From contig JACZTB010000031.1 of NCBI GenBank assembly GCA_022573895.1, forward strand, positions 1 through 20,213: a stretch of 20,213 bases of DNA, given 5' to 3'. Numbering within the stretch: the first letter of the stretch is position 1; each line of letters opens with the position of its first letter. Origin of the DNA: Nitrososphaerota archaeon (GTDB lineage Archaea > Thermoproteota > Nitrososphaeria > Nitrososphaerales > Nitrosopumilaceae). The notes under the pieces are model-generated. The model was not told the DNA's origin and did no database searches. It saw only the letters and a program-made list of their open reading frames with translations. The translations under genes were made by a program, and so were the position numbers. Below are positions 10,238-19,562 of the stretch, piece by piece.

Positions 10238-10699
10238 ATGAGTTCACCTACGTCGAGCCACGCGTATGGTATAGGGGTTGTTGCAATAATCATTGCAATG
10301 TCTGCCTCAATTGTATTTTACACTTCATTTTATATTCCTGAATCTTTGGCAAAGCCAACCGTAGCTGAACATATCTTAAATCCAGACACAGATTTTATTA
10401 TTGAAATTGTTCCAGGTGCAGTAATTGAAGGAAATGAAAACTATGTTCCAAACCAATCCAAAGTGTTATTGGGTATTAACAACAAAGTTATTTGGATAAA
10501 TCTGGATGATACTCCTCATACTGTAACTCCTGATCATAGAGCCTCTGATAAGTATAGTGGAGACTTTGGTTCTATAGGTGTCCTTAAACCTGGTGATTCC
10601 TTTGAATTCCTATTCACAGAGGTTCAAGAAATTCCTTATCACTGTGAACCTCATCCATGGATGACTGGAAACATTTCTATAGAACTGAGCAGATTCTAG
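10238..10699 (+). CDS. Membrane-anchored plastocyanin/amicyanin-like type-1 blue copper protein (153 aa)
   Basis: N-terminal TM (YGIGVVAIIIAMSASIVFYTSFY). Type-1 Cu ligands: His in DDTPHTVTP and C-x2-H-x3-M in YHCEPHPWMTG. Located directly after Rieske/cyt b. Confidence 0.9.
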   Translation: MSSPTSSHAYGIGVVAIIIAMSASIVFYTSFYIPESLAKPTVAEHILNPDTDFIIEIVPGAVIEGNENYVPNQSKVLLGINNKVIWINLDDTPHTVTPDHRASDKYSGDFGSIGVLKPGDSFEFLFTEVQEIPYHCEPHPWMTGNISIELSRF

Positions 10700-11046
10700 A
10701 TAGAATATTTCGCAAAAATTATTTGACTTTCAATTTCTTTATGTTGCTCAATAATTGACACTCTAAATTTTATTTCATGTTCTTGTTTTGGCTCAAATTT
10801 AATTAGTGCGGTAAATTCTGCCTTGTTTTTAGGCATTACCTCTTTGTTGATGAATAATCTTGAAACATTTTGTGAAATACTCTTTCCGTTGCATGACTTG
10901 TAGAATATGTGTTCATTTGAATCTAAAATCTGGGTATTTATCACAACTCCATCATATCTTCCTGGATATGACACAGAAATTGTTCCTCTGATTTCAGAAT
11001 TTGGATGAATGTCAGTTGAGTTTAGTGTGAATACTAAATCTTTCAT
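10696..11046 (-). CDS. Small hypothetical protein (116 aa), possibly arrestin-N/Spo0M-like beta-sandwich
   Basis: Clean ORF with ATG. The pattern LNSTDIHPNSEIRGTISVSYPGRYDGVVINTQI resembles arrestin-N/Spo0M-type strands, but this is weak and by eye only. Its stop overlaps the cupredoxin stop by 4 nt (convergent). Confidence 0.6.
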   Translation of the reverse strand: MKDLVFTLNSTDIHPNSEIRGTISVSYPGRYDGVVINTQILDSNEHIFYKSCNGKSISQNVSRLFINKEVMPKNKAEFTALIKFEPKQEHEIKFRVSIIEQHKEIESQIIFAKYSI

Positions 11047-11189
11047 GAAAACATCATCTGTAAATCAGAATAAATAATTTTGTTAAGCGGGCCCAAAGGG
11101 TTCAAGATACTAACTTGGGTCTAATTTTGGTTCCACTTTGTTCATAAAATTTTGTTTTGCGTAATCTTATAGAACCACGTAGCAACTCT

Positions 11190-11416
11190 CTGTAGCTTAA
11201 ATCTGAGCTTCTCTGGATTTAGCTTTTTAGCTCTTCAAGCTGGAACAAAAATCTGTAGCTAAACAGCTACAGATGCACTACATTAGCTGTTGTAGCTACA
11301 GTTGTCGTGCGTAGAAAGCAGCTACAAAAGAGCTACAACTACGCCTGAAAAACTACAGAAGCTGTTTTGTAGCTGTAGCTAGGCACGACACTGTAAATTG
11401 TAGCTTATAGCTACAA
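11190..11416. repeat. Dense array of GTAGCT/AGCTAC hexamers arranged mainly as dyads (non-coding)
   Basis: GTAGCT at 11192, 11255, 11293, 11369, 11375, 11400. AGCTAC at 11265, 11295, 11320, 11331, 11409. Dyads: CTGTAGCT-aaac-AGCTACAG (11253-11272), TGTAGCTACA (11291-11300), TTGTAGCT-tat-AGCTACAA (11398-11416). Tandem GTAGCTGTAGCT (11369-11380). Confidence 0.9.
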
Positions 11417-11466
11417 CTTACAAGAAGATCTACAGGAGCTTCGTTCGTAAACCTTTACGCACGACA
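11303..11466. repeat. 11-bp perfect inverted repeat TGTCGTGCGTA / TACGCACGACA enclosing part of the GTAGCT array
   Basis: Left arm 11303-11313, right arm 11456-11466 (142 bp between them). A third GCACGACA lies at 11383-11390. Confidence 0.85.
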
Positions 11467-11918
11467 GTTAGCTGAATAGCTGCGTAGTTCTAATGGAGAT
11501 TACGAAATAATACGATAGTGAATATACTTATGAAAATTTTGGATCAACCTTTTCCCCTAAATTAGTTTATTGATAATTAATAAAAATAGAACCTCCCCTC
11601 TCCCTGCTAAAAAATCACGGTTTTCTCGTTATGTTGTACGTTATGATTTGTTGGAAAAAGGTTACGGAACAAATATGGGAAACATAACAACGGATGAAAA
11701 ACAGGGATGTCCAGAAAATTGAGAACGATGGATTATAGGGCCTTTCTTCATTGATGATCTTACAATAATCAAGAGCTATGAGCCACTGGAGTGTTTTGAA
11801 CGAACTGCAATTCATCCATACGTGGAATATATCAACGGTTCCTCTGATTTTATATTGGATTAGAACTTCCTCCCATTCTCTGCAAATGTGATCTTGGTTC
11901 CTCAAGTTCTTTTCCTTC

Positions 11919-13868
11919 CTATGCCTGGGTTGTAGAAGCTTTTGGATGGCCCACTTTTCGGTGTTGCGTATCGCTGTCCAAAGGCAACAAGATATGGATC
12001 TCAGCTCCCTTATCTCTTCCCTCGGATTCCGCCCAGATCTTACCGTCATGATTTTCGATTATTCCCTTGCAAACTGATAAACCCAAACCAATTCCTCCAG
12101 TTTCTCTGGTAAGGGAGCTGTCTATTTGATAGAATTTTATAAAAATTTCATCAAGTTTTTCTTTTTGGATTCCTGCTCCATTGTCTTTCACTATCACTCT
12201 AGCGTTAAAACTGTCGGAATCAAGTTTGACGTGGATTTTACCATTTTTTTTGGTGTACTTCATAGCATTAGATATTAGATTTGATAGAACTTGTTCGATT
12301 CTAGTTTTGTCACACGAACAGAAAATATTTTCTTGCAGATCCGTGGTGATAGAAATGTTTTGTTTTTTCGCAATAGTCTTCATATTTGTGGCTGTCACGG
12401 TGATAATTTTAGACAAATCATAGATCTTCTTATCTAATTTCAACTGACCAAGTTCTATTTTTTGAGCATCCAAAAGATCTGAAACAAGCCTCAGAAGTGA
12501 ATCGGTATTTGATTTTACTACATTAAGTATTTTTCGTTGTTCCTCTTTGATGCTGCCAAACTTTCCTGATAGAACCATATCAGTATAACTTTTTATCGGA
12601 ACTAACGGAGTTCTCAATTCATGTGAGGTCATATACAAGAATTCAGATTTTGCCGAGTCCAATTTTTTAAGTTCTTCATATTGTTTTATTATGGTCCTTT
12701 GCTTTTCTTGTAGCGCTTTTTGTGCGTTGTACATTTCTGTGATGTCTCTAATGATGGTATTGCTACCAATTAACTTGCCACTGTCATCATAGAGATTGTT
12801 TGCACTAATTAGAGTTGGAAAAGTAGTCCCATCTTTTCTCCTTAATCTAACTTCCCTATTTAATATACGTCCTGTCTTTTTCCACGTTTCAAATGAGTCA
12901 CGCATCTCGGATTCTCCTTCTTTAGAGATATGCTCAAAGATTGATTTGCCAATTATCTCTTCCTTGGTGTAACCCAAGTGTTCGGCATAGGATTTGTTAC
13001 AGTTAAGGATAATTCCTTCTTTATTGATGGTACGGTACAGATCCGGTGAATTCTCGTATAAGCTTCTATATCTTCTTTCAATCTCTTCGATTTGTGAAAT
13101 GTTTTTGATTACTGTGTTACTTCCAATAAGTGTACCATCTTCATTATACAGACTTGTTGCACTTATTAGCACGGGAAATGAAGTTCCGTCTTTTCTCATT
13201 AGCCTAGACTTGTGAGTTGGGACTCTTCCTGTCTTTTTCCATTCCTCAAATAATTTGTGCGTTGGTTCAAGGCTTCTTTCACTACAAAAGTCAAAAATTG
13301 ATTTTCCGATTATTTCTTCCTTTGAATATCCCAGTTCCTGAGCATACTTTTTGTTACAATCAATAATTATTCCATTTGTATTTATGCTACGATGAAGATC
13401 CGGTGATCCCTCATACAAGCTTCTAAATTTTCTTTCAGTCTGTCGGAGTTCGGAGATATCTCTAATGATGGTATTGCTACCAATTAACTTGCCACTGCCA
13501 TCATAGAGATTGTTTGCACTAATTAGAGTTGGAAAAGTAGTCCCATCTTTTCTCATTAGCGAAATTTCCATGCTGGAAACTGTTCCCCCTTTCTTCCACT
13601 CATCAAAAGATTTACGTAATGCTAGCAGACTTTGTTCTGCGACGTGTTCAAATATTGATTTGCCAATAACTTCTTTTTTCGAATAGCCCAGATTCTTTGC
13701 ATAGGATTTGTTGCAGACAACAATTATTCCGTCTGTATTTATTGTTCGGTAAAGATCGGGAGACTCGTTGTAAAGGTTCATGTATATTTGAAATAACGGA
13801 TGACTTTCACCTTGTACTTTTTTTGTTATCTCTTTCTCTGAGAAATTCACCGACATCCCTGTCTCCAT
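11919..13868 (-). CDS. Cytoplasmic sensor histidine kinase with three tandem PAS domains (649 aa)
   Basis: Three repeats of YRSLYExSPDLYRxIN..GII..CNK.YA..LGY.KEE.IGKSIF ... RKDGT.FP.LISA..LY...G.LIGSNT.I.(D/N)IS. H-box MTSHELRTPL, N-box LSNLISNAMKYT, G1 VKDNGAGI, G2 GGIGLGLSVCKG. No TM segment. No response regulator in the window. Confidence 0.92.
   Translation of the reverse strand: METGMSVNFSEKEITKKVQGESHPLFQIYMNLYNESPDLYRTINTDGIIVVCNKSYAKNLGYSKKEVIGKSIFEHVAEQSLLALRKSFDEWKKGGTVSSMEISLMRKDGTTFPTLISANNLYDGSGKLIGSNTIIRDISELRQTERKFRSLYEGSPDLHRSINTNGIIIDCNKKYAQELGYSKEEIIGKSIFDFCSERSLEPTHKLFEEWKKTGRVPTHKSRLMRKDGTSFPVLISATSLYNEDGTLIGSNTVIKNISQIEEIERRYRSLYENSPDLYRTINKEGIILNCNKSYAEHLGYTKEEIIGKSIFEHISKEGESEMRDSFETWKKTGRILNREVRLRRKDGTTFPTLISANNLYDDSGKLIGSNTIIRDITEMYNAQKALQEKQRTIIKQYEELKKLDSAKSEFLYMTSHELRTPLVPIKSYTDMVLSGKFGSIKEEQRKILNVVKSNTDSLLRLVSDLLDAQKIELGQLKLDKKIYDLSKIITVTATNMKTIAKKQNISITTDLQENIFCSCDKTRIEQVLSNLISNAMKYTKKNGKIHVKLDSDSFNARVIVKDNGAGIQKEKLDEIFIKFYQIDSSLTRETGGIGLGLSVCKGIIENHDGKIWAESEGRDKGAEIHILLPLDSDTQHRKVGHPKASTTQA
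12745..12840. repeat. Intragenic 96-bp repeat copy A (PAS3), 95/96 identical to 13459-13554
   Basis: tctctaatgatggtattgctaccaattaacttgccactgTcatcatagagattgtttgcactaattagagttggaaaagtagtcccatcttttctc. Offset to copy B is exactly 714 nt (238 codons). Flanks diverge sharply. Confidence 0.9.
13459..13554. repeat. Intragenic 96-bp repeat copy B (PAS1)
   Basis: Same sequence as 12745-12840 except C at 13498 versus T at 12784 (Gly versus Asp in LYD(G/D)SGK). Confidence 0.9.
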
Positions 13869-13914: not shown

Positions 13915-13932
13915 GGGGGGGGGGGGGGGGGG
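13915..13932. repeat. G18 homopolymer (C18 on the kinase coding strand) 47-64 nt upstream of the kinase start codon
   Basis: Counted directly: atcc + 18 G + ttctc. It lies in the divergent intergenic region between the kinase (-) and the 14141 gene (+). Confidence 0.9.
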
Positions 13933-14140: not shown

Positions 14141-14638
14141 GTGTTATTGAAGAGGGCTGTCATAATTCTTGGATTTATCCTTTCATTAGGAATAGTTGTT
14201 AGTCTTTCATTTTATGCATCCGCAGAATCCCTTATTCCATCTTGGATAAAAAATACAGCTGGGTTTTGGGTTGATGATCAAATTAGTGATTCAGAGTTTA
14301 TAGCTGCATTACAATTTCTTGTAAAAGAAGGAATCTTGATGATTCCACAACCAGTTGAGGAAAAACAAGAACAACAGAGTGGATTTAGTAATACGAATTG
14401 TCGCAAAGATCTCACTGGGTTTGTAACAATGACTGGTAAATTTACAAATGGTCAAACACCTGCTTCTCAAATATACTTCATATTAGGAGTGCTTGATGCT
14501 GATGGGGCTGTGTTAGCCACAGGTATTGGGGTTATTTCCAATGTTGAGGCTTATCAAACAAAACTCTTTGAAGCTACTGCTGCATATACTGGACCATTTA
14601 CTAAATGTGAAATTCAAGTCTCAGATGTTTTTCGATAG
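14141..14638 (+). CDS. Small secreted/membrane-anchored protein (165 aa), GTG start
   Basis: N-terminal TM/signal (AVIILGFILSLGIVVSLSFYASA), then the motif IPSWIKNTAGFWVDDQISDSEFIAALQFLVKEGILMIP, which I recall as recurrent in thaumarchaeal secreted proteins (memory only). C-terminal ~85 aa beta-rich domain with two Cys. The start is GTG at 14141; the nearby ATG at 14133 is out of frame. Confidence 0.7.
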   Translation: MLLKRAVIILGFILSLGIVVSLSFYASAESLIPSWIKNTAGFWVDDQISDSEFIAALQFLVKEGILMIPQPVEEKQEQQSGFSNTNCRKDLTGFVTMTGKFTNGQTPASQIYFILGVLDADGAVLATGIGVISNVEAYQTKLFEATAAYTGPFTKCEIQVSDVFR

Positions 14639-14644
14639 CTATTC

Positions 14645-14680
14645 TATCTTTCGTAATCTGTACTAGGATTACGAAAGATA
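14645..14680. terminator. Perfect 14-bp stem / 8-nt loop hairpin 7 nt after the stop of the 14141..14638 gene; founding member of a dispersed hairpin family
   Basis: TATCTTTCGTAATC-tgtactag-GATTACGAAAGATA read directly. A half-copy TACTAAGATTACGcaagAAAGAT lies upstream of the same gene (14078-14099). Confidence 0.6.
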
Positions 14681-15138: not shown

Positions 15139-15819
15139 TCAAACCTTGTTTAATTCATCAAAAATTTTTCTAATATAATCGTCATGATTAGAAACAAATT
15201 TTTCAACTTTTGATTTGTCTTTATTTCTGTATACTGTCATGACATCAAAAGTTTTTTCTGAACTTCGGGCTGCAGGTTGAATATTAATATCAAACCAGTC
15301 ACTACTCTGTATTTTTTTATCAGATGAGTATATGTGAAAACCATAATTTAAAACAGGTTCTTGGATTATGTTTTTTATTTTTTCATTTAGGTTTCCCTCT
15401 GGTTTGATTTTTCCTAATCTTTCCATTGGATTTTCACCAGTTTCGATAGCATAATTTGACAATAATTCGTAAAAAATGGCATTTTCATCAATTGTGGGTT
15501 CTATTGAAGTCTTGACAATATCTAATATCTCCAAAAAAACATTAATTGATTCATTAAGATCACTTCCATCAACCCCAATAACTTGTGGAAGGGAATCAAA
15601 TTGTATAGCCACATTCCCTTTTTTACCGATTATCCCATTCCAATCTAATGATACACCAATTGGAGTAGGTCCTGTTTTTGGAGGAGGTATTAAGACATAA
15701 TCCATCTTGGTTCGAGCTAAAGCATTTTGAAGATCACCAGTAACAAATGGAAATATAACGTATCTATAACGAACAGATAGCCTGTTTCTTTTTGCAGTAA
15801 TTTTGAATTCTTGAGACAT
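15139..15819 (-). CDS. Hypothetical protein (226 aa), no recognisable domain; second gene of the HTH operon
   Basis: Clean ORF with ATG, 11-nt gap after the upstream HTH gene. Soluble, mixed alpha/beta-looking sequence. No catalytic motif I can name. Confidence 0.7.
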   Translation of the reverse strand: MSQEFKITAKRNRLSVRYRYVIFPFVTGDLQNALARTKMDYVLIPPPKTGPTPIGVSLDWNGIIGKKGNVAIQFDSLPQVIGVDGSDLNESINVFLEILDIVKTSIEPTIDENAIFYELLSNYAIETGENPMERLGKIKPEGNLNEKIKNIIQEPVLNYGFHIYSSDKKIQSSDWFDINIQPAARSSEKTFDVMTVYRNKDKSKVEKFVSNHDDYIRKIFDELNKV

Positions 15820-15830
15820 CGTGCATCAAA

Positions 15831-16577
15831 CTAAACTGAAGTTTCTTGGTATTCTATTTTTCTTGGTAAATTCGCTGCCGCTAGACCAATATACATTCTT
15901 GAGCTAATGTCTTCATCAGAAAGGAGTGGCATAGAAAGTATTTGTTTATTTAATTCGTCGTGAACATCTTGTACTATATCTAGTGGTAAGTTACCCCGCT
16001 CTGTTAATTCTTCAAGACTATGTGGAAAAGTAGGATAAATCCAGGAAGCAACCATTTGAGGTATCAACATTCTCATGGCAGTATATTCCAATAGAATTGT
16101 TTGTTGTGGTATCCAGTGAAAATTTTTTGATTTTGCAAAATCGTTCATTGTTAAGAATAGCTTGTTTACTTCTAAATCACGATTTTTGTAGATAAGCCCA
16201 GCATATTCCTTTACCATATTTTCGAATATCCTGACAGTTTTGAGATATTCATCTTCATCCTTTGCATCGAATGATTGTTCGTACAAAGTTGACAGATAAG
16301 ACATCAAAGTTTCTGAACTAGAATTATACAATTTATCAGTAAGATAATAGAAAGTTTCTAGAGGTAATTTTTCAATTAATGTTTCCAAAACTTTTACCTT
16401 AGTAGAATGTTTTACATCTTCTTTACGAGCTCTCCAGCCATAAACAGATGCTTTAGCAATGCCACATTCTGCTGCTGTTGGCTCAAGTTTATTCCCAAAT
16501 TCTTTTTGTAATTTATCAAATAGGTGGGCCGTCCCCTCAGAATCCAGGTAATTTGCATATTTTTCTATATACTTCAT
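15831..16577 (-). CDS. Helix-turn-helix DNA-binding protein with ~180-aa unknown C-terminal domain (248 aa)
   Basis: HTH-like segment LEPTAAECGIAKASVYGWRARK (aa ~31-52). The rest is helical and unrecognised. The start codon lies 7 nt from a 24-bp perfect palindrome. Confidence 0.7.
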   Translation of the reverse strand: MKYIEKYANYLDSEGTAHLFDKLQKEFGNKLEPTAAECGIAKASVYGWRARKEDVKHSTKVKVLETLIEKLPLETFYYLTDKLYNSSSETLMSYLSTLYEQSFDAKDEDEYLKTVRIFENMVKEYAGLIYKNRDLEVNKLFLTMNDFAKSKNFHWIPQQTILLEYTAMRMLIPQMVASWIYPTFPHSLEELTERGNLPLDIVQDVHDELNKQILSMPLLSDEDISSRMYIGLAAANLPRKIEYQETSV

Positions 16578-16583
16578 TATACT

Positions 16584-16607
16584 AACCGTATAGTATACTA
16601 TACGGTT
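16584..16607. promoter_or_regulatory. Perfect 24-bp palindrome AACCGTATAGTA|TACTATACGGTT in the divergent promoter region; candidate operator overlapping TATA-like sequence
   Basis: Checked by hand: the reverse complement of aaccgtatagta is tactatacggtt. It covers -7 to -30 relative to the HTH gene ATG (16577) and itself contains TATAGTATA/TATACTATA. Confidence 0.6.
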
Positions 16608-16663
16608 TGGTCTTTAATATATAATTTTTAGGATATATTTGAGTAAGCACATTTCTTACCCTA

Positions 16664-17458
16664 TTGAGTCAGACATGCTCTCATCGTGATGGCATACTAG
16701 TCGATACTAAACCTAGTGGATTGATTAGTTTGAGAAATGCAATTTTAGATTTAATTAGAAAATATCTTTGTCCTAACGCCGATCAGGTTAATCCTCCCAC
16801 TTTTGTAAATTTGCAAATTACTCAACCATTCAAAACACAGTATACTAGTCCTGCTGAAGAATTAATTCTTGAAATTGACGCAATGAGTTTGTTCAGACAC
16901 ACTGGAATAACAGATTTTGAAACACGTGGATGTTATAAACCAAGCGACGGAAAAATATATTTAGTAAGGAACAAGTGGTGTTTAGAAACATTAATTCATG
17001 AAACTCTACATGCATGTTCAATAAACTCCCAAGATCCTGAATTAAAAAGATATGAACAATTATTTGATGGTTTAACTGAATTTTTTACTGGGTACATTTT
17101 ATTTCAGGAATTCAAACAATGTTATACGGATTGTTTTTCATCATTTGACCAACAATGTAGTATGACATATCATAATTATACAAAATTATGGATTGCACTT
17201 TGTAATTTTGTTTCACTAAAAAATGTTATAGGAATTTACTTTCCCACCGATAAACTCTGGGATGATGAAGTTAAAGAGTTTGTTAATAGAATAAAAAATC
17301 TAGGATTTGATAAATTCAGTAATCCATTTGGTAGAGCTGGTTTAGATAGTATAACACGATTTAGAATTATTTGTGATAAGACATTTGGCAATTCATATGA
17401 CGATATTTGTGAGCATTACAAACTTTATTCTGACTTTAGTAAAGTTAATGACACATGA
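16664..17458 (+). CDS. Putative zincin-fold metallopeptidase-like protein with HExxH motif (264 aa, Cys-rich); start codon uncertain (TTG)
   Basis: GKIYLVRNKWCLETLIHETLHAC, with HETLH at aa 112-116 (nt 16997-17011). This resembles the 'I.L....L..tLlHExxH' context of SprT/WLM/ImmA-like minimal metalloproteases. Possible third ligand Glu in YEQLFDGLTEFF. 11 Cys. There is no in-frame ATG near the 5' end; the ORF track starts at TTG 16664. Confidence 0.6.
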   Translation: MSQTCSHRDGILVDTKPSGLISLRNAILDLIRKYLCPNADQVNPPTFVNLQITQPFKTQYTSPAEELILEIDAMSLFRHTGITDFETRGCYKPSDGKIYLVRNKWCLETLIHETLHACSINSQDPELKRYEQLFDGLTEFFTGYILFQEFKQCYTDCFSSFDQQCSMTYHNYTKLWIALCNFVSLKNVIGIYFPTDKLWDDEVKEFVNRIKNLGFDKFSNPFGRAGLDSITRFRIICDKTFGNSYDDICEHYKLYSDFSKVNDT

Positions 17459-19019: not shown

Positions 19020-19042
19020 CGTAATCTTAGATAGGATTATGA
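19020..19042. repeat. Hairpin-family copy CGTAATC-ttagatag-GATTATG, 10 nt downstream of the 169-aa gene stop and ~100 nt upstream of the 417-aa gene start
   Basis: Read directly. The 10-mer CGTAATCTTA is shared with 11160-11169, and the arms with 14652-14673. Confidence 0.8.
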
Positions 19043-19052
19043 ATTCAGAATA

Positions 19053-19562
19053 TCACTTAAAATGAAAATCCCACATATGAGGATCTGAGTTTTTTAGAAA
19101 TTTTTTGTGTCTTTGAACTTGTTTTAGTTTGATATGTTTTACACATTCGTCACAAGCTCCAAAATCAGGATTTACTGATTTTTTTAAATCCAACCAAATA
19201 GGTTTGAATTTGCTACGAAACTTTTCTGCACGGTTGGGATTTTCTGAATTTGTATCGTAGTATTCTTTAACTAAATCGTAAAGTTCTCGTGTTTTTTCAT
19301 ACGTGTACAAATGTTGTAAAACCCTTTTTCCTGTTAATTTGTCATGATTAAATACTATCCAAATAGCATTAGAATATAAGCTCGAAGTTCTCATCATGCT
19401 GTTAAAAAAATCCAGTAATGGTTCTATCTCTTTTCGATAATCATCTCTAAAAAAATATTTTTTATCATGTTGCTTGTTCCGAACATTCCATAATAGACTT
19501 AATGATCCTATAACTACACCAGCTAACGCAATGTAAAATATAGGATCTTCATAGAATTCCAT
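19053..19562 (-). CDS. N-terminally membrane-anchored hypothetical protein (169 aa)
   Basis: Single TM PIFYIALAGVVIGSLSLLWNV followed by a basic/helical soluble domain. CDEC..H near the C-terminus. Confidence 0.65.
   Translation of the reverse strand: MEFYEDPIFYIALAGVVIGSLSLLWNVRNKQHDKKYFFRDDYRKEIEPLLDFFNSMMRTSSLYSNAIWIVFNHDKLTGKRVLQHLYTYEKTRELYDLVKEYYDTNSENPNRAEKFRSKFKPIWLDLKKSVNPDFGACDECVKHIKLKQVQRHKKFLKNSDPHMWDFHFK

Follow-up and report, generated by a model that had tools for sequence, protein, structure and literature searches.

We analysed a stretch of 20,213 nucleotides of a Nitrosopumilaceae contig (JACZTB010000031.1; hereafter the window), in which a gap of 872 bp between open reading frames (positions 11047-11918) contains a block of non-coding DNA (11157-11507) that is saturated with one 8-letter word. 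A preliminary description of this DNA had reported a gap of about 870 bp and no ORF over the block, and indeed no ORF of 60 aa or more covers it, the longest stop-free stretch being 38 codons. Further to the right, a 144-aa ORF (11615-12049) without a family match overlaps a kinase gene. The block was also carried in identical orientation by an independent ENA contig (L003) with a single SNP (T>C at 11297) and is therefore not an assembly artefact. The features of the locus are given below with the evidence for each; only the tRNA remnant is assigned a strand.

11088-11100, minus strand: 13-nt remnant of the 3' end of tRNA-Arg(TCT), CCCTTTGGGCCCG, attachment-site core and left junction of the island (contig L004 and comparison of five loci)
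11101-11156: terminal arm of the island, includes GTCTAATTTTGGTTCCACTTTGTTCA; about 33 nt shared with the terminus of another island, L151, inserted at this tRNA
11157-11183: left outer inverted arm, TTGCGTAATCT..TAGAAC..ACGTAGC, pairing with 11478-11507 (repeat I12 and folded structure)
11190-11416: array of 11 YTGTAGCT / AGCTACAR sites, six in one orientation and five in the other (word counts and simulations)
11194-11481: wider run of 19 AGCT cores enclosing the array (word counts)
11251-11274: dyad 1, ATCTGTAGCT AAAC AGCTACAGAT, with 10-bp perfect arms (repeat I10)
11303-11390: central imperfect palindrome of about 88 bp (repeats I1 and I8)
11392-11422: dyad 3, TGTAAATTGTAGCT TAT AGCTACAACTTACA (repeat I2)
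11456-11466: second complement of the G+C-rich arm, TACGCACGACA, alternative partner for 11303-11313 (repeats I9 and D11)
11478-11507: right outer inverted arm, GCTGCGTAGTTCTAATGGAGATTACGAAA (repeat search and folded structure)
11508-11590: A+T-rich tract adjoining the block, 72-80% A+T (composition)
14647-14678: palindrome H1, perfect copy of the hairpin family with 12-13-bp perfect arms and an 8-bp spacer, beginning 9 nt past the stop of ORF 14141-14638
19020-19041: degenerate palindrome H2, CGTAATC TTAGATAG GATTATG, just beyond the stop-codon end of ORF 19053-19562

All 11 copies of the hexamer pair GTAGCT/AGCTAC that had been noted before could be located by position, with GTAGCT starting at 11192, 11255, 11292, 11369, 11375 and 11400 and AGCTAC at 11265, 11294, 11320, 11331 and 11409, and every one of them extends to YTGTAGCT or AGCTACAR. 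The earlier rough estimate of about 19 AGCT against roughly one expected was also accurate: within the 351-bp block we counted 19, against 1.15 expected from base composition and a mean of 0.97 per 351 bp in the remainder of the window. Each of the 11 8-mers has AGCT at its centre, and a further eight AGCT are bare. In simulations (n=1000, first-order Markov, using the block's own dinucleotide content) AGCT reached a mean of 6.8 and a maximum of 15, and the commonest 7-mer was found at most six times versus 11 times in the block. The 7-mers TGTAGCT and AGCTACA do not occur in the remaining 19.9 kb of the window. Spacing of the array sites is irregular (6-33 bp), with no helical phasing and no periodicity above the null.

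The sites lie within nested inverted repeats. The dyads with 4-, 0- and 3-nt spacers (11253-11272, 11291-11300 and 11398-11416), the tandem pair (11369-11380) and the perfect 11-bp inverted repeat (11303-11313 / 11456-11466) of the preliminary description are all present, and a third copy of this 11-mer (91%) was found at 11380-11390. The complementary brackets said to enclose the block, CGTAATCT at 11160 and AGATTACG at 11497, are both there, and their complementarity reaches further inward than had been described, so that the block ends in inverted repeats that are perfect over 8-11 bp and imperfect over about 24-27 bp. In the central palindrome, G+C-rich bases (TGTCGTGCGTAG / CTAGGCACGACA) flank the 8-mer-type sites, one arm having a pair of AGCTACAA sites and the other a pair of TGTAGCT. 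Folding of the block gave z = -9.5 for the plus strand and -8.3 for the minus strand, with a long-range helix closing the entire block; no K-turn was evident in this outer helix by manual reading. A+T content at 11501-11580 is 72-80% versus 64.5% for the window.

Comparison with related contigs showed where this block lies. In contig L004 the neighbouring 116-aa ORF is identical and the tRNA-Arg(TCT), which ends in the 13-nt core sequence, is intact; on the host side five loci show no differences, and their divergence sets in exactly at the 13-nt remnant. Homology to contigs sharing the neighbouring ORF breaks at 11100-11107. The tRNA-Arg occupies this position in most of 36 Nitrosopumilus loci and, across 80 Nitrosopumilus loci, is an insertion hotspot, with a different integrase element at the insertion site in L001. 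To the right of the remnant, the window consists entirely of a strain-specific island, at least 9 kb long, in a Nitrosopumilus genome. The block begins 57 bp inside this island and the array is situated 90-316 bp from the attachment core. The terminal arm in between matched the end of the L151 island with a score of 34 versus a maximum of 26 in 300 shuffles, and had no match in the empty site L004. ORFs of the window to the right of 11100 had no significant homologue in the loci compared, with the sole exception of ORF 14141-14638, which showed a weak 44-residue match in L151. Over the 9 kb of the island that are visible, Pfam, PHROGs and PADLOC revealed no replication, partition or integrase gene, and no second copy of the attachment core was found within the window. 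The L151 island has the terminal 33 nt and lacks the block, and the ends of L130, L158, L157 and L185, elements likewise inserted at this tRNA, are free of arrays; integration there accordingly does not need the block. A direct repeat (11123/11535) was considered as a target duplication or second attachment site and rejected as not significant (p about 0.05).

As had been proposed, the arms of the block belong to a hairpin family found elsewhere in the window, with H1 as a perfect and H2 as a degenerate copy. Three short palindromes share the block's arms, and four instances are known. H1 is also present in L328 between non-homologous flanks, with one compensated change (C-G to T-A), and this 34-bp palindrome of L328 has TTTTGCGTAATC, the left arm sequence of the block, as its own left arm. 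On the strand of its gene, H2 shows an A.C mismatch. In 1.47 Mb of related DNA scanned, hairpins with these arms were confined to the islands described here. The idea that the H1 region is a paralogous 'empty site' corresponding to the flanks of the block was rejected, since similarity was not significant beyond the arms.

Searching related genomes, as the preliminary description had suggested, gave a divided result: a blastn search with 11101-11918 yielded no match in the 80 Nitrosopumilus loci (nor in phage GenBank records or PLSDB plasmids), and a diverged version of the block was found at the end of a Nitrosarchaeum island (L331, 9219-9465). This version contains 11 of the same 8-mers and 15 AGCT, and the aligned core regions of the two blocks are 59% identical. 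They are the two AGCT-densest segments (19 and 15) in 1.27 Mb of Nitrosopumilaceae DNA, the next non-coding segment having 6. The 8-mer is conserved as sequence, and other stems drift with compensation. The central palindrome is conserved at L331 9297-9380, with four pairs changed on both sides and none broken, whichever strand is read. A covariance check, likewise suggested earlier, returned four compensated pairs in the central hairpin, from two sequences only and with equal signal on both strands, the consensus structures (-33.5 vs -37.1 kcal/mol) being equally good; with only two independent versions known, these compensated changes prove little. Palindrome arms can homogenise without selection.

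The Nitrosarchaeum block lies in the first approximately 370 bp of its island, adjoining a tRNA-like locus; the corresponding site in eight further genomes of Nitrosarchaeum is occupied by a tRNA-like gene instead. A hairpin with the outer arms seen in the window (TCTTTCG/CGAAAGA) begins exactly at the junction with core DNA and is found beside the block, not around it. This island carries an integrase (PF00589). The visible parts of the two islands have no proteins in common and no common candidate binder. An A+T tract (80-90%) is present here as well, on the other side than in the window, and the transcription context of the block differs between Nitrosopumilus and Nitrosarchaeum.

No second full-length copy was detected in the window, in 1.47 Mb of related DNA (by 8-mer and AGCT density) or in viral and metagenome scans. 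Only one other two-orientation 7-mer array was found in 1.23 Mb, with the word TGTCAAG, and it is also part of a tRNA-Arg-site element (L135). Scanning IMG/VR and JGI metagenomes with the pattern brought up many same-word arrays in unrelated bacterial phage and MGE contigs, which we discounted because they were selected by the search pattern itself; Smith-Waterman scores cannot tell true relatives from any array of the word. These phage arrays adjoin a gene for a small DNA-binding-like protein or a helicase-like gene, and immediately upstream of a small protein, which appears ribbon-helix-helix-like by eye, the phage contigs of IMG/VR carry GTAGCTAC arrays. This protein had no Pfam match, and neither the window nor L210, L135 or L151 gave a hit to its profile with an E-value under 0.4. 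L210 alone among the scanned contigs matched the more specific architecture of the block, with a flank homology to the window that is marginal at best, and a spurious ORF across the L210 block gave no hits as a protein query. Rfam searches at gathering and permissive thresholds produced no match in the block (best E-value 0.47, far below threshold), and ARAGORN found no tRNA.

Several other leads were followed and rejected. The HTH protein at 15831-16577 belongs to a three-gene cassette that elsewhere occurs without arrays or hairpins. The kinase has a 91% relative in L328, where homology ends 30 nt past the stop codon, and two further kinase contexts held nothing relevant. The right flank (11508-11918) was considered as a pseudogene, for which there was no Pfam match, and exhaustive search gave repeat-driven chance matches only. 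An invertible promoter was discarded as well, with the orientation in L003 being the same as in the window and the block ends being without full recombinase core sites by manual reading.

Three decisive pieces of context were absent from the preliminary description: the cellular nature of the genome (Nitrosopumilus), the insertion of the island at the 3' end of a tRNA-Arg with the block starting 57 bp from its edge, and the role of AGCT as the methylation motif of this archaeal family. AGCT m4C methyltransferases have been listed for Nitrosomarinus, Nitrosoarchaeum and strain MY3 (PMC11033074), and in the two marine Thaumarchaeota MAGs that were examined, 82-91% of AGCT sites were found modified (PMC8919816). 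The tetramer is not avoided genome-wide, with an observed/expected ratio of 1.10 in 1.27 Mb of Nitrosopumilaceae DNA. We know of no reader protein for m4C at AGCT.

The presence of a diverged copy at the same place in a second genus makes it probable that the block serves these islands as a control site for protein docking, as far as its sequence tells. The strand-symmetric palindrome signal, the missing Rfam match and the 8-mer kept as sequence together point to a cis element acting at the DNA level, a multi-site landing pad with a palindromic core. Because AGCT is the m4C target reported for marine Thaumarchaeota, we prefer an origin-like, methylation-sensitive control region: a cis-acting module at the tRNA-proximal island end that might serve replication or maintenance control of the excised island, a proposal that we make tentatively and rate somewhat short of an even chance. 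Iteron-type sites, clustered methylation sites and a neighbouring A+T-rich tract would all be united in such an origin-like region. A single sequence-specific DNA-binding protein, of island or host origin, would occupy the 8-mers in many copies, and the bound proteins would jointly build a large nucleoprotein complex around a palindrome able to extrude as a cruciform. Occupancy would depend on the methylation state of AGCT and therefore on replication. That the AGCT m4C cluster, the iteron-like words and the cruciform-prone palindrome together form an epigenetically read origin or copy-control switch of a tRNA-targeting island family is a more far-reaching idea and a distinctly improbable one. 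The terminal position in both islands is unexpected for an origin and counts against this role. The next most likely role of the same DNA element is that of a recombination-enhancer arm beside the attachment site. The variable dyad spacers (0, 3 and 4 nt) fit hairpin stems better than a fixed dimer site.

Among the three readings of the preliminary description (iteron or operator array, ncRNA, MITE), the protein-binding array is favoured over the ncRNA because the 8-mer is kept in a relative of 59% identity, the structure is strand-symmetric and Rfam gave no match; the ncRNA is thereby weakened, not refuted, and a plain MITE is unsupported. The ncRNA would be a structured transcript of about 350 nt from the island end, in which the repeated identical stems form a multi-hairpin scaffold or protein sponge and the post-stop palindromes are related RNA hairpins. 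It would explain the extreme folding (z -9.5 / -8.3) with its whole-block closing helix, the four compensated pairs that hold the central hairpin across genera, dyad spacers that vary as loops do, the small palindromes directly past stop codons and a TATA-like AT-rich box about 25-35 nt upstream of the minus-strand arm (manual reading). However, besides the symmetry between strands and the negative Rfam search, the mismatches of the imperfect repeats are G.G, G.A or evenly strand-split and thus show no wobble bias, H2 carries its A.C mismatch on its gene's strand, the transcription context differs between the genera, and the strict conservation of the 8-mer inside stems exceeds what RNA pairing alone requires, so that we regard a transcript of this kind as unlikely. 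A recombination arm or subterminal repeat cluster also appears doubtful to us. Here the 8-mers would be arm-type sites for an integrase or excisionase and assemble the excision/integration complex, and this suits an array that is 90-316 bp from the core (in Nitrosarchaeum within about 370 bp of the junction), that would flank attP in the excised circle and whose repeat motif differs from the core. Against it stand the terminal 33 nt of L151 without the block, the elements L130, L158, L157 and L185 without end arrays and the 11 mixed-orientation sites, which far exceed known arms; no integrase of the window island is visible, the window ending before any such gene, and, to our knowledge, minimal sites suffice for those archaeal integrases that have been characterised.

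Mobility of the block itself was the third of the earlier readings, as a MITE-like element inserted into a hairpin. In its wider form, a small non-autonomous MITE- or CIME-like module would have landed at the island end, with the arms of the 34-bp palindrome family as its termini and the internal repeats as sites of the mobilising enzyme. The block is non-coding, 351 bp long and has inverted termini, its arms recur in two strains as short palindromes whose flanks are not homologous, and blocks terminate two islands whose genes are unrelated, with none at the related L151 end. There is, however, no target-site duplication and no direct repeat abutting the arms, no second full-length copy in the DNA scanned and no visible transposase, and the Nitrosarchaeum hairpin lies beside the block and not around it; this speaks against insertion into a hairpin and makes mobility of the block quite unlikely. 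Functionless palindromic or low-complexity DNA that arose by local duplication and inversion would fit the few lineages, the irregular spacing and the tendency of palindromes to self-expand and homogenise. As the 8-mer, its copy number, the central palindrome and the hairpin arms persist at equivalent positions across two genera at 59% identity, and the block is stable between independent assemblies, such a neutral origin is highly improbable.

Ammonia-oxidising archaea are among the most abundant ocean microbes, most of their island genes are without recognisable function, and almost nothing is known about the movement, replication and control of their islands. A conserved and easily recognised terminal module represents a handle that locates islands and could be used as bait for its binding protein, and it permits testing whether the family-wide AGCT m4C has a regulatory or a purely defensive role. 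If the methylation link holds, this would be among the first functional readouts of m4C in Archaea, and if the proposed switch is real, an archaeal m4C counterpart of the Dam/SeqA GATC clusters at bacterial origins with a new reader protein.

Integrated elements of Thaumarchaeota were described with tRNA 3'-end integration, short direct repeats and cryptic gene content (Krupovic et al. 2019, PMC6563490), and the window island resembles them in its tRNA 3'-end integration and its cryptic content. The passages of that paper retrieved by term searches contain no repeat-packed terminal module, and the sole mention of iterons among them is a citation on wHTH replication proteins. The short palindromes, and only these, are comparable to REP/BIME elements and to the 13+8+13 sites of the loxP/FRT type, being 34 bp long, with perfect arms of 12-13 bp around a spacer of 8 bp, and also situated just past stop codons and at the boundaries of non-homologous segments; they differ in having no associated RAYT transposase or recombinase. 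The block's outer arms are 329 nt apart and thus cannot serve as a single core site.

The short repeated words within a few hundred bp beside a recombination site are reminiscent of attP arms and of the subterminal repeats of Ac/Ds or En/Spm, which bind proteins in these systems. Arms of lambdoid phage and mycobacteriophage attP have 5-7 sites. In contrast to attP arms, the block is missing in other elements that share its attachment site, and no arm-binding integrase was identified. Ribbon-helix-helix proteins bind cooperatively to centromere or operator arrays of many 7-11-bp words in direct and inverted orientation, such as the omega heptads of pSM19035, parC of R1 and the ParG sites of TP228. 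The block has such words as well, but known arrays of this type are contiguous or regularly spaced and adjoin the gene of their binder, whereas no adjacent gene for a small DNA-binding protein or ParA-type ATPase was found in the window by profile and Pfam searches. The iterons of plasmid and phage origins (RK2 oriV, P1 oriR, lambda ori) are 17-22-bp direct repeats, usually phased and adjoining a rep gene, and E. coli oriC contains 11 GATC Dam sites that are bound by SeqA when hemimethylated. Unlike iterons, the word of the block is 8 bp long, occurs in both orientations, is unphased and has no rep gene in view, and unlike the Dam/SeqA system the block is archaeal and its mark would be m4C at AGCT. 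Like iteron origins and GATC clusters, the block is non-coding DNA in a mobile element that is saturated with one short word and adjoined by an A+T tract, and like Dam-site clusters its word contains the methylation tetramer of the host family at about 19 times the expected density, methylation in this particular strain being presumed.

The block, a 351-bp non-coding array at window positions 11157-11507, contained GTAGCT six times and AGCTAC five times, in agreement with the 11 copies of the preliminary description, and all 11 hexamers extended to the 8-mers YTGTAGCT or AGCTACAR. The other 19.9 kb of the window held no copy of the 7-mers TGTAGCT/AGCTACA. The excess of AGCT described earlier was also borne out, with 19 copies against 1.15 predicted from base composition and a mean of 0.97 per 351 bp in the rest of the window. 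In simulations keeping the dinucleotide content of the block (n=1000), AGCT averaged 6.8 with a maximum of 15, and the commonest 7-mer reached at most 6 copies vs the 11 observed. The dyads, the tandem pair, the perfect 11-bp inverted repeat and the CGTAATCT/AGATTACG bracket were all recovered in place, and no ORF ran across the block. The G+C-rich 11-mer occurred a third time, at 11380. Complementarity of the outer arms continued inward to about 24 bp, so that a long-range helix closes the whole block, and single-strand folding was far better than that of shuffled sequences on both strands (z = -9.5 and -8.3). The block was present with one SNP in an independently assembled ENA contig (L003) and is therefore not an artefact.

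The window represents the cellular genome of an ammonia-oxidising archaeon and not a virus; its cytochrome b showed 82-92% identity to 80 Nitrosopumilus genomes. Features around the block were as follows.

Neighbouring genes in the window: Rieske protein, cytochrome b, plastocyanin-like protein, PAS histidine kinase
11088-11100, minus strand: last 13 nt of a tRNA-Arg(TCT), CCCTTTGGGCCCG; the rest of the tRNA is gone from the window
14647-14678: perfect CGTAATC..GATTACG palindrome (12-13 + 8 + 12-13), starting 9 nt past a stop codon
19020-19041: degenerate copy of this palindrome, likewise just beyond a gene end

In contigs encoding an identical 116-aa ORF (10696-11046), the match to the window stopped at 11100-11107. 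At that point tRNA-Arg(TCT) was intact in a contig with an empty integration site (L004), and another contig (L001) carried a different element with an integrase-like ORF. The gene order cytochrome b, plastocyanin, small ORF, tRNA-Arg was kept in Nitrosopumilus, and the tRNA-Arg(TCT) following this cluster is an integration hotspot across the genus (loci L125-L204), with at least four different element ends represented. Elements of 4-5 kb bounded by a tRNA remnant and a full tRNA were found in two loci (L130 and L158); seven further Nitrosopumilus loci had the remnant alone, and the elements there are therefore longer than 9 kb. Window ORFs to the right of 11100 had no significant homologue in 80 Nitrosopumilus loci except for one weak 44-residue match (L151), and Pfam, PHROG and PADLOC gave no function for them except for the kinase. 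Because the match to sister contigs ends here, a tRNA remnant is present and the ORFs lack homologues, all of the window from 11101 onward is an island specific to the strain and at least 9.1 kb long. Its G+C content falls to 0.25-0.33 past 14.5 kb. The block starts 57 bp inside the island. The first ~33 nt of the island recur in L151, where another island occupies this tRNA and is without the block.

The PAS histidine kinase gene was 91% identical in contig L328. Window 14006-11889 matched L328 808-2924 with 93.8% identity and not past those limits, and both flanking contexts differed; the island thus has a mosaic make-up, with modules that can be exchanged. An 18-G homopolymer (13915-13932) about 50 bp upstream of the kinase start corresponded to 11 G in L328 (888-898) and lies where a contig breaks off in one metagenome (L206); it reflects either variation in tract length or a problem of sequencing. 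Further along, ORFs of 264, 248 and 226 aa (15139-17458) formed a conserved cassette which recurred in different neighbourhoods of other thaumarchaeal contigs (L311, L312, L314), in one case close to the gene of an HNH protein and in another surrounded by housekeeping genes. The intergenic region that separates the divergent ORFs 15831-16577 (HTH-like) and 16664-17458 contains a perfect 24-bp palindrome, AACCGTATAGTA|TACTATACGGTT (16584-16607), which is probably the operator of this pair.

L328 also carried the palindrome of window 14647-14678 within wholly different flanks and with one C-G to T-A change on both arms. Its left arm TTTTGCGTAATC was identical to the left arm of the block. Hairpins of the form T[CT]TT[TG]CG..CG[AC]AA[AG]A occurred only in these islands among 1.47 Mb of Nitrosopumilaceae DNA. 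Owing to the shared left arm and this restriction, the arms bracketing the block are members of a palindrome family that is specific to the islands and marks the boundaries of modules.

The numerous arrays of this word that a metagenome scan gave in unrelated contigs were discounted, as they had been selected by the search pattern itself. A low-G+C contig (L210) fitted a stricter pattern, consisting of AGCTACAA, AGCTACAA, a 25-26-nt gap, TTTTGTAGCT and then GGCACRACA, which no other locus among those compared with it matched. NCBI annotates the protein beside this block as Nitrosarchaeum sp., and the region was identical in four more contigs with longer context, in which the order from the host side was as follows.

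Housekeeping genes, eIF-1A, cold-shock protein gene, tract of 80-90% A+T
Hairpin TCTTTCGAT(20 nt)ATCGAAAGA after the A+T tract
Two GTGTTCGA repeats after the hairpin, then the block
L331 9219-9465: Nitrosarchaeum block, in which the same 8-mers occur 11 times and AGCT 15 times
Past the block: SEC-C, TPR, CDC48-like and Schlafen/AlbA_2 proteins and a PF00589 integrase

In eight further Nitrosarchaeum genomes whose cold-shock protein is identical, its gene is followed by a conserved 130-nt sequence, then a 203-aa gene and aIF5A. Parsed by hand, the 130-nt sequence would be a minus-strand tRNA-Tyr(GTA) interrupted by an intron of ~52 nt that follows the anticodon; neither ARAGORN (bacterial mode) nor Rfam called it. 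It was located at L343 4270-4400 and at the same site in L335, L337-L342 and L344. Homology of the island-bearing genome to the others stopped at ...TTATTATTTTTAAAAT, where the hairpin begins, and the tRNA-like sequence was not found in its next 11.8 kb. The same spot hosts other insertions in N. salarius and another Nitrosopumilus; insertions right beside the tRNA-Tyr-like sequence were seen in at least three lineages (L336, L346, L349). In two genera, then, a large insertion next to a tRNA locus opens with ~370 bp that comprise the block and a hairpin of the same arm type. As far as the two islands are visible, they have no proteins in common.

Identity between the two blocks was 59% over their aligned cores. 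Both kept the 8-mer (11 copies each), the AGCT density and a central palindrome of ~88 bp (window 11303-11390), in which every predicted pair was kept, four via changes on both sides; these four lie in the G+C-rich base and a linker pair, none in the 8-mers. This comparison comprises two sequences, too few for a covariation test, and palindrome arms can co-evolve without selection. The structure was equivalent on the opposite strand (-37.1 vs -33.5 kcal/mol), and there was no wobble bias, since mismatches in the imperfect repeats of the window were G.G, G.A or divided between strands. We take this as evidence that the central palindrome matters, or at least is maintained, but not as evidence of an RNA product.

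Methyltransferases with AGCT as their m4C target are listed (PMC11033074) for Nitrosomarinus catalina, Nitrosoarchaeum BD3 and strain MY3, and SMRT sequencing showed 82-91% of AGCT modified in both marine Thaumarchaeota MAGs studied (PMC8919816). AGCT was not avoided in Nitrosopumilus DNA (observed/expected 1.10). Of all 351-bp segments in 1.27 Mb, the two blocks had the most AGCT (19 and 15), followed by one coding alanine repeat with 11 and then, in non-coding DNA, a segment with 6. The window strain presumably methylates AGCT as well. As the core of the word is the listed m4C target and eight more bare AGCT are present, the block would bear ~38 modified cytosines in 300 bp.

Non-coding and conserved, the block is a genuine module of integrated islands and lies at their tRNA-proximal end; its word is conserved as sequence, its palindrome is conserved, and the palindrome family is associated with it. 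The 8-mers might be binding sites of a sequence-specific DNA-binding protein loading in many copies, with the palindrome supplying a cruciform or symmetric core and methylation modulating binding. A DNA-level cis element, with both its possible roles taken together, is somewhat probable. As its role we tentatively prefer control of replication or maintenance of the excised island, as an origin-like region, because iteron-like sites, an adjacent A+T tract and a cluster of presumed host methylation sites are combined, as is typical of origins. The terminal position in the island points instead to a recombination arm. L151 and other elements using this attachment site lack the block, however, and this role seems unlikely. 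The strong folding would suit an ncRNA, which we consider improbable; folding was strong on both strands, and no known RNA family matched the block. That the block is a mobile module is rather improbable, and neutral DNA, given two genera with the same word, is very improbable.

Another element at the tRNA-Arg site (L135) had a comparable array in both orientations, built on another word, TGTCAAG, and such arrays therefore recur in these elements; the locus is rearranged and the array position there uninformative. This non-coding array (12730-13080; RNA-fold z = -5.3) was saturated with TGTCAAG/CTTGACA, including a perfect palindrome CTTGACGCGTCAAG, and came after an integrase-like ORF fragment, the remainder of the gene being apparently inverted at 20514-21542. 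Arrays were also seen elsewhere. In 38 low-G+C IMG/VR phage contigs (L006, L008, L009, L010, L107 and ~33 others), GTAGCTAC(AAA) arrays directly preceded a protein of ~100 aa starting MKSKPIGVRFDLDKLD, which looks ribbon-helix-helix-like and had no Pfam match; they are probably an autoregulated operator or centromere array. Two JGI metagenome contigs (L225 1-520, L249 60-560) had, at contig ends, 8 direct TGTAGCT and ~17 tandem AGCTACAGCTACAAAAY units in opposite orientation on either side of a ~90-bp A+T-rich spacer, which looks like an origin or telomere. A bacterial phage contig (L310 7100-7370) carried a non-coding array of (T/C)TGTAGCT and AGCTACAAAA immediately downstream of the gene for a 393-aa protein, by appearance a P-loop or helicase-like ATPase; this would fit a phage origin.

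Mobile elements with repeat arrays are a known kind. What appears to be new is an 8-mer built on a presumed host methylation tetramer, in mixed orientation, together with a nested palindrome whose closing arms come from a palindrome family specific to the islands, as well as its conserved terminal position in thaumarchaeal islands and its occurrence in two genera. Term searches of a survey of thaumarchaeal integrated elements (PMC6563490) returned nothing like the block. The block is now directly testable.
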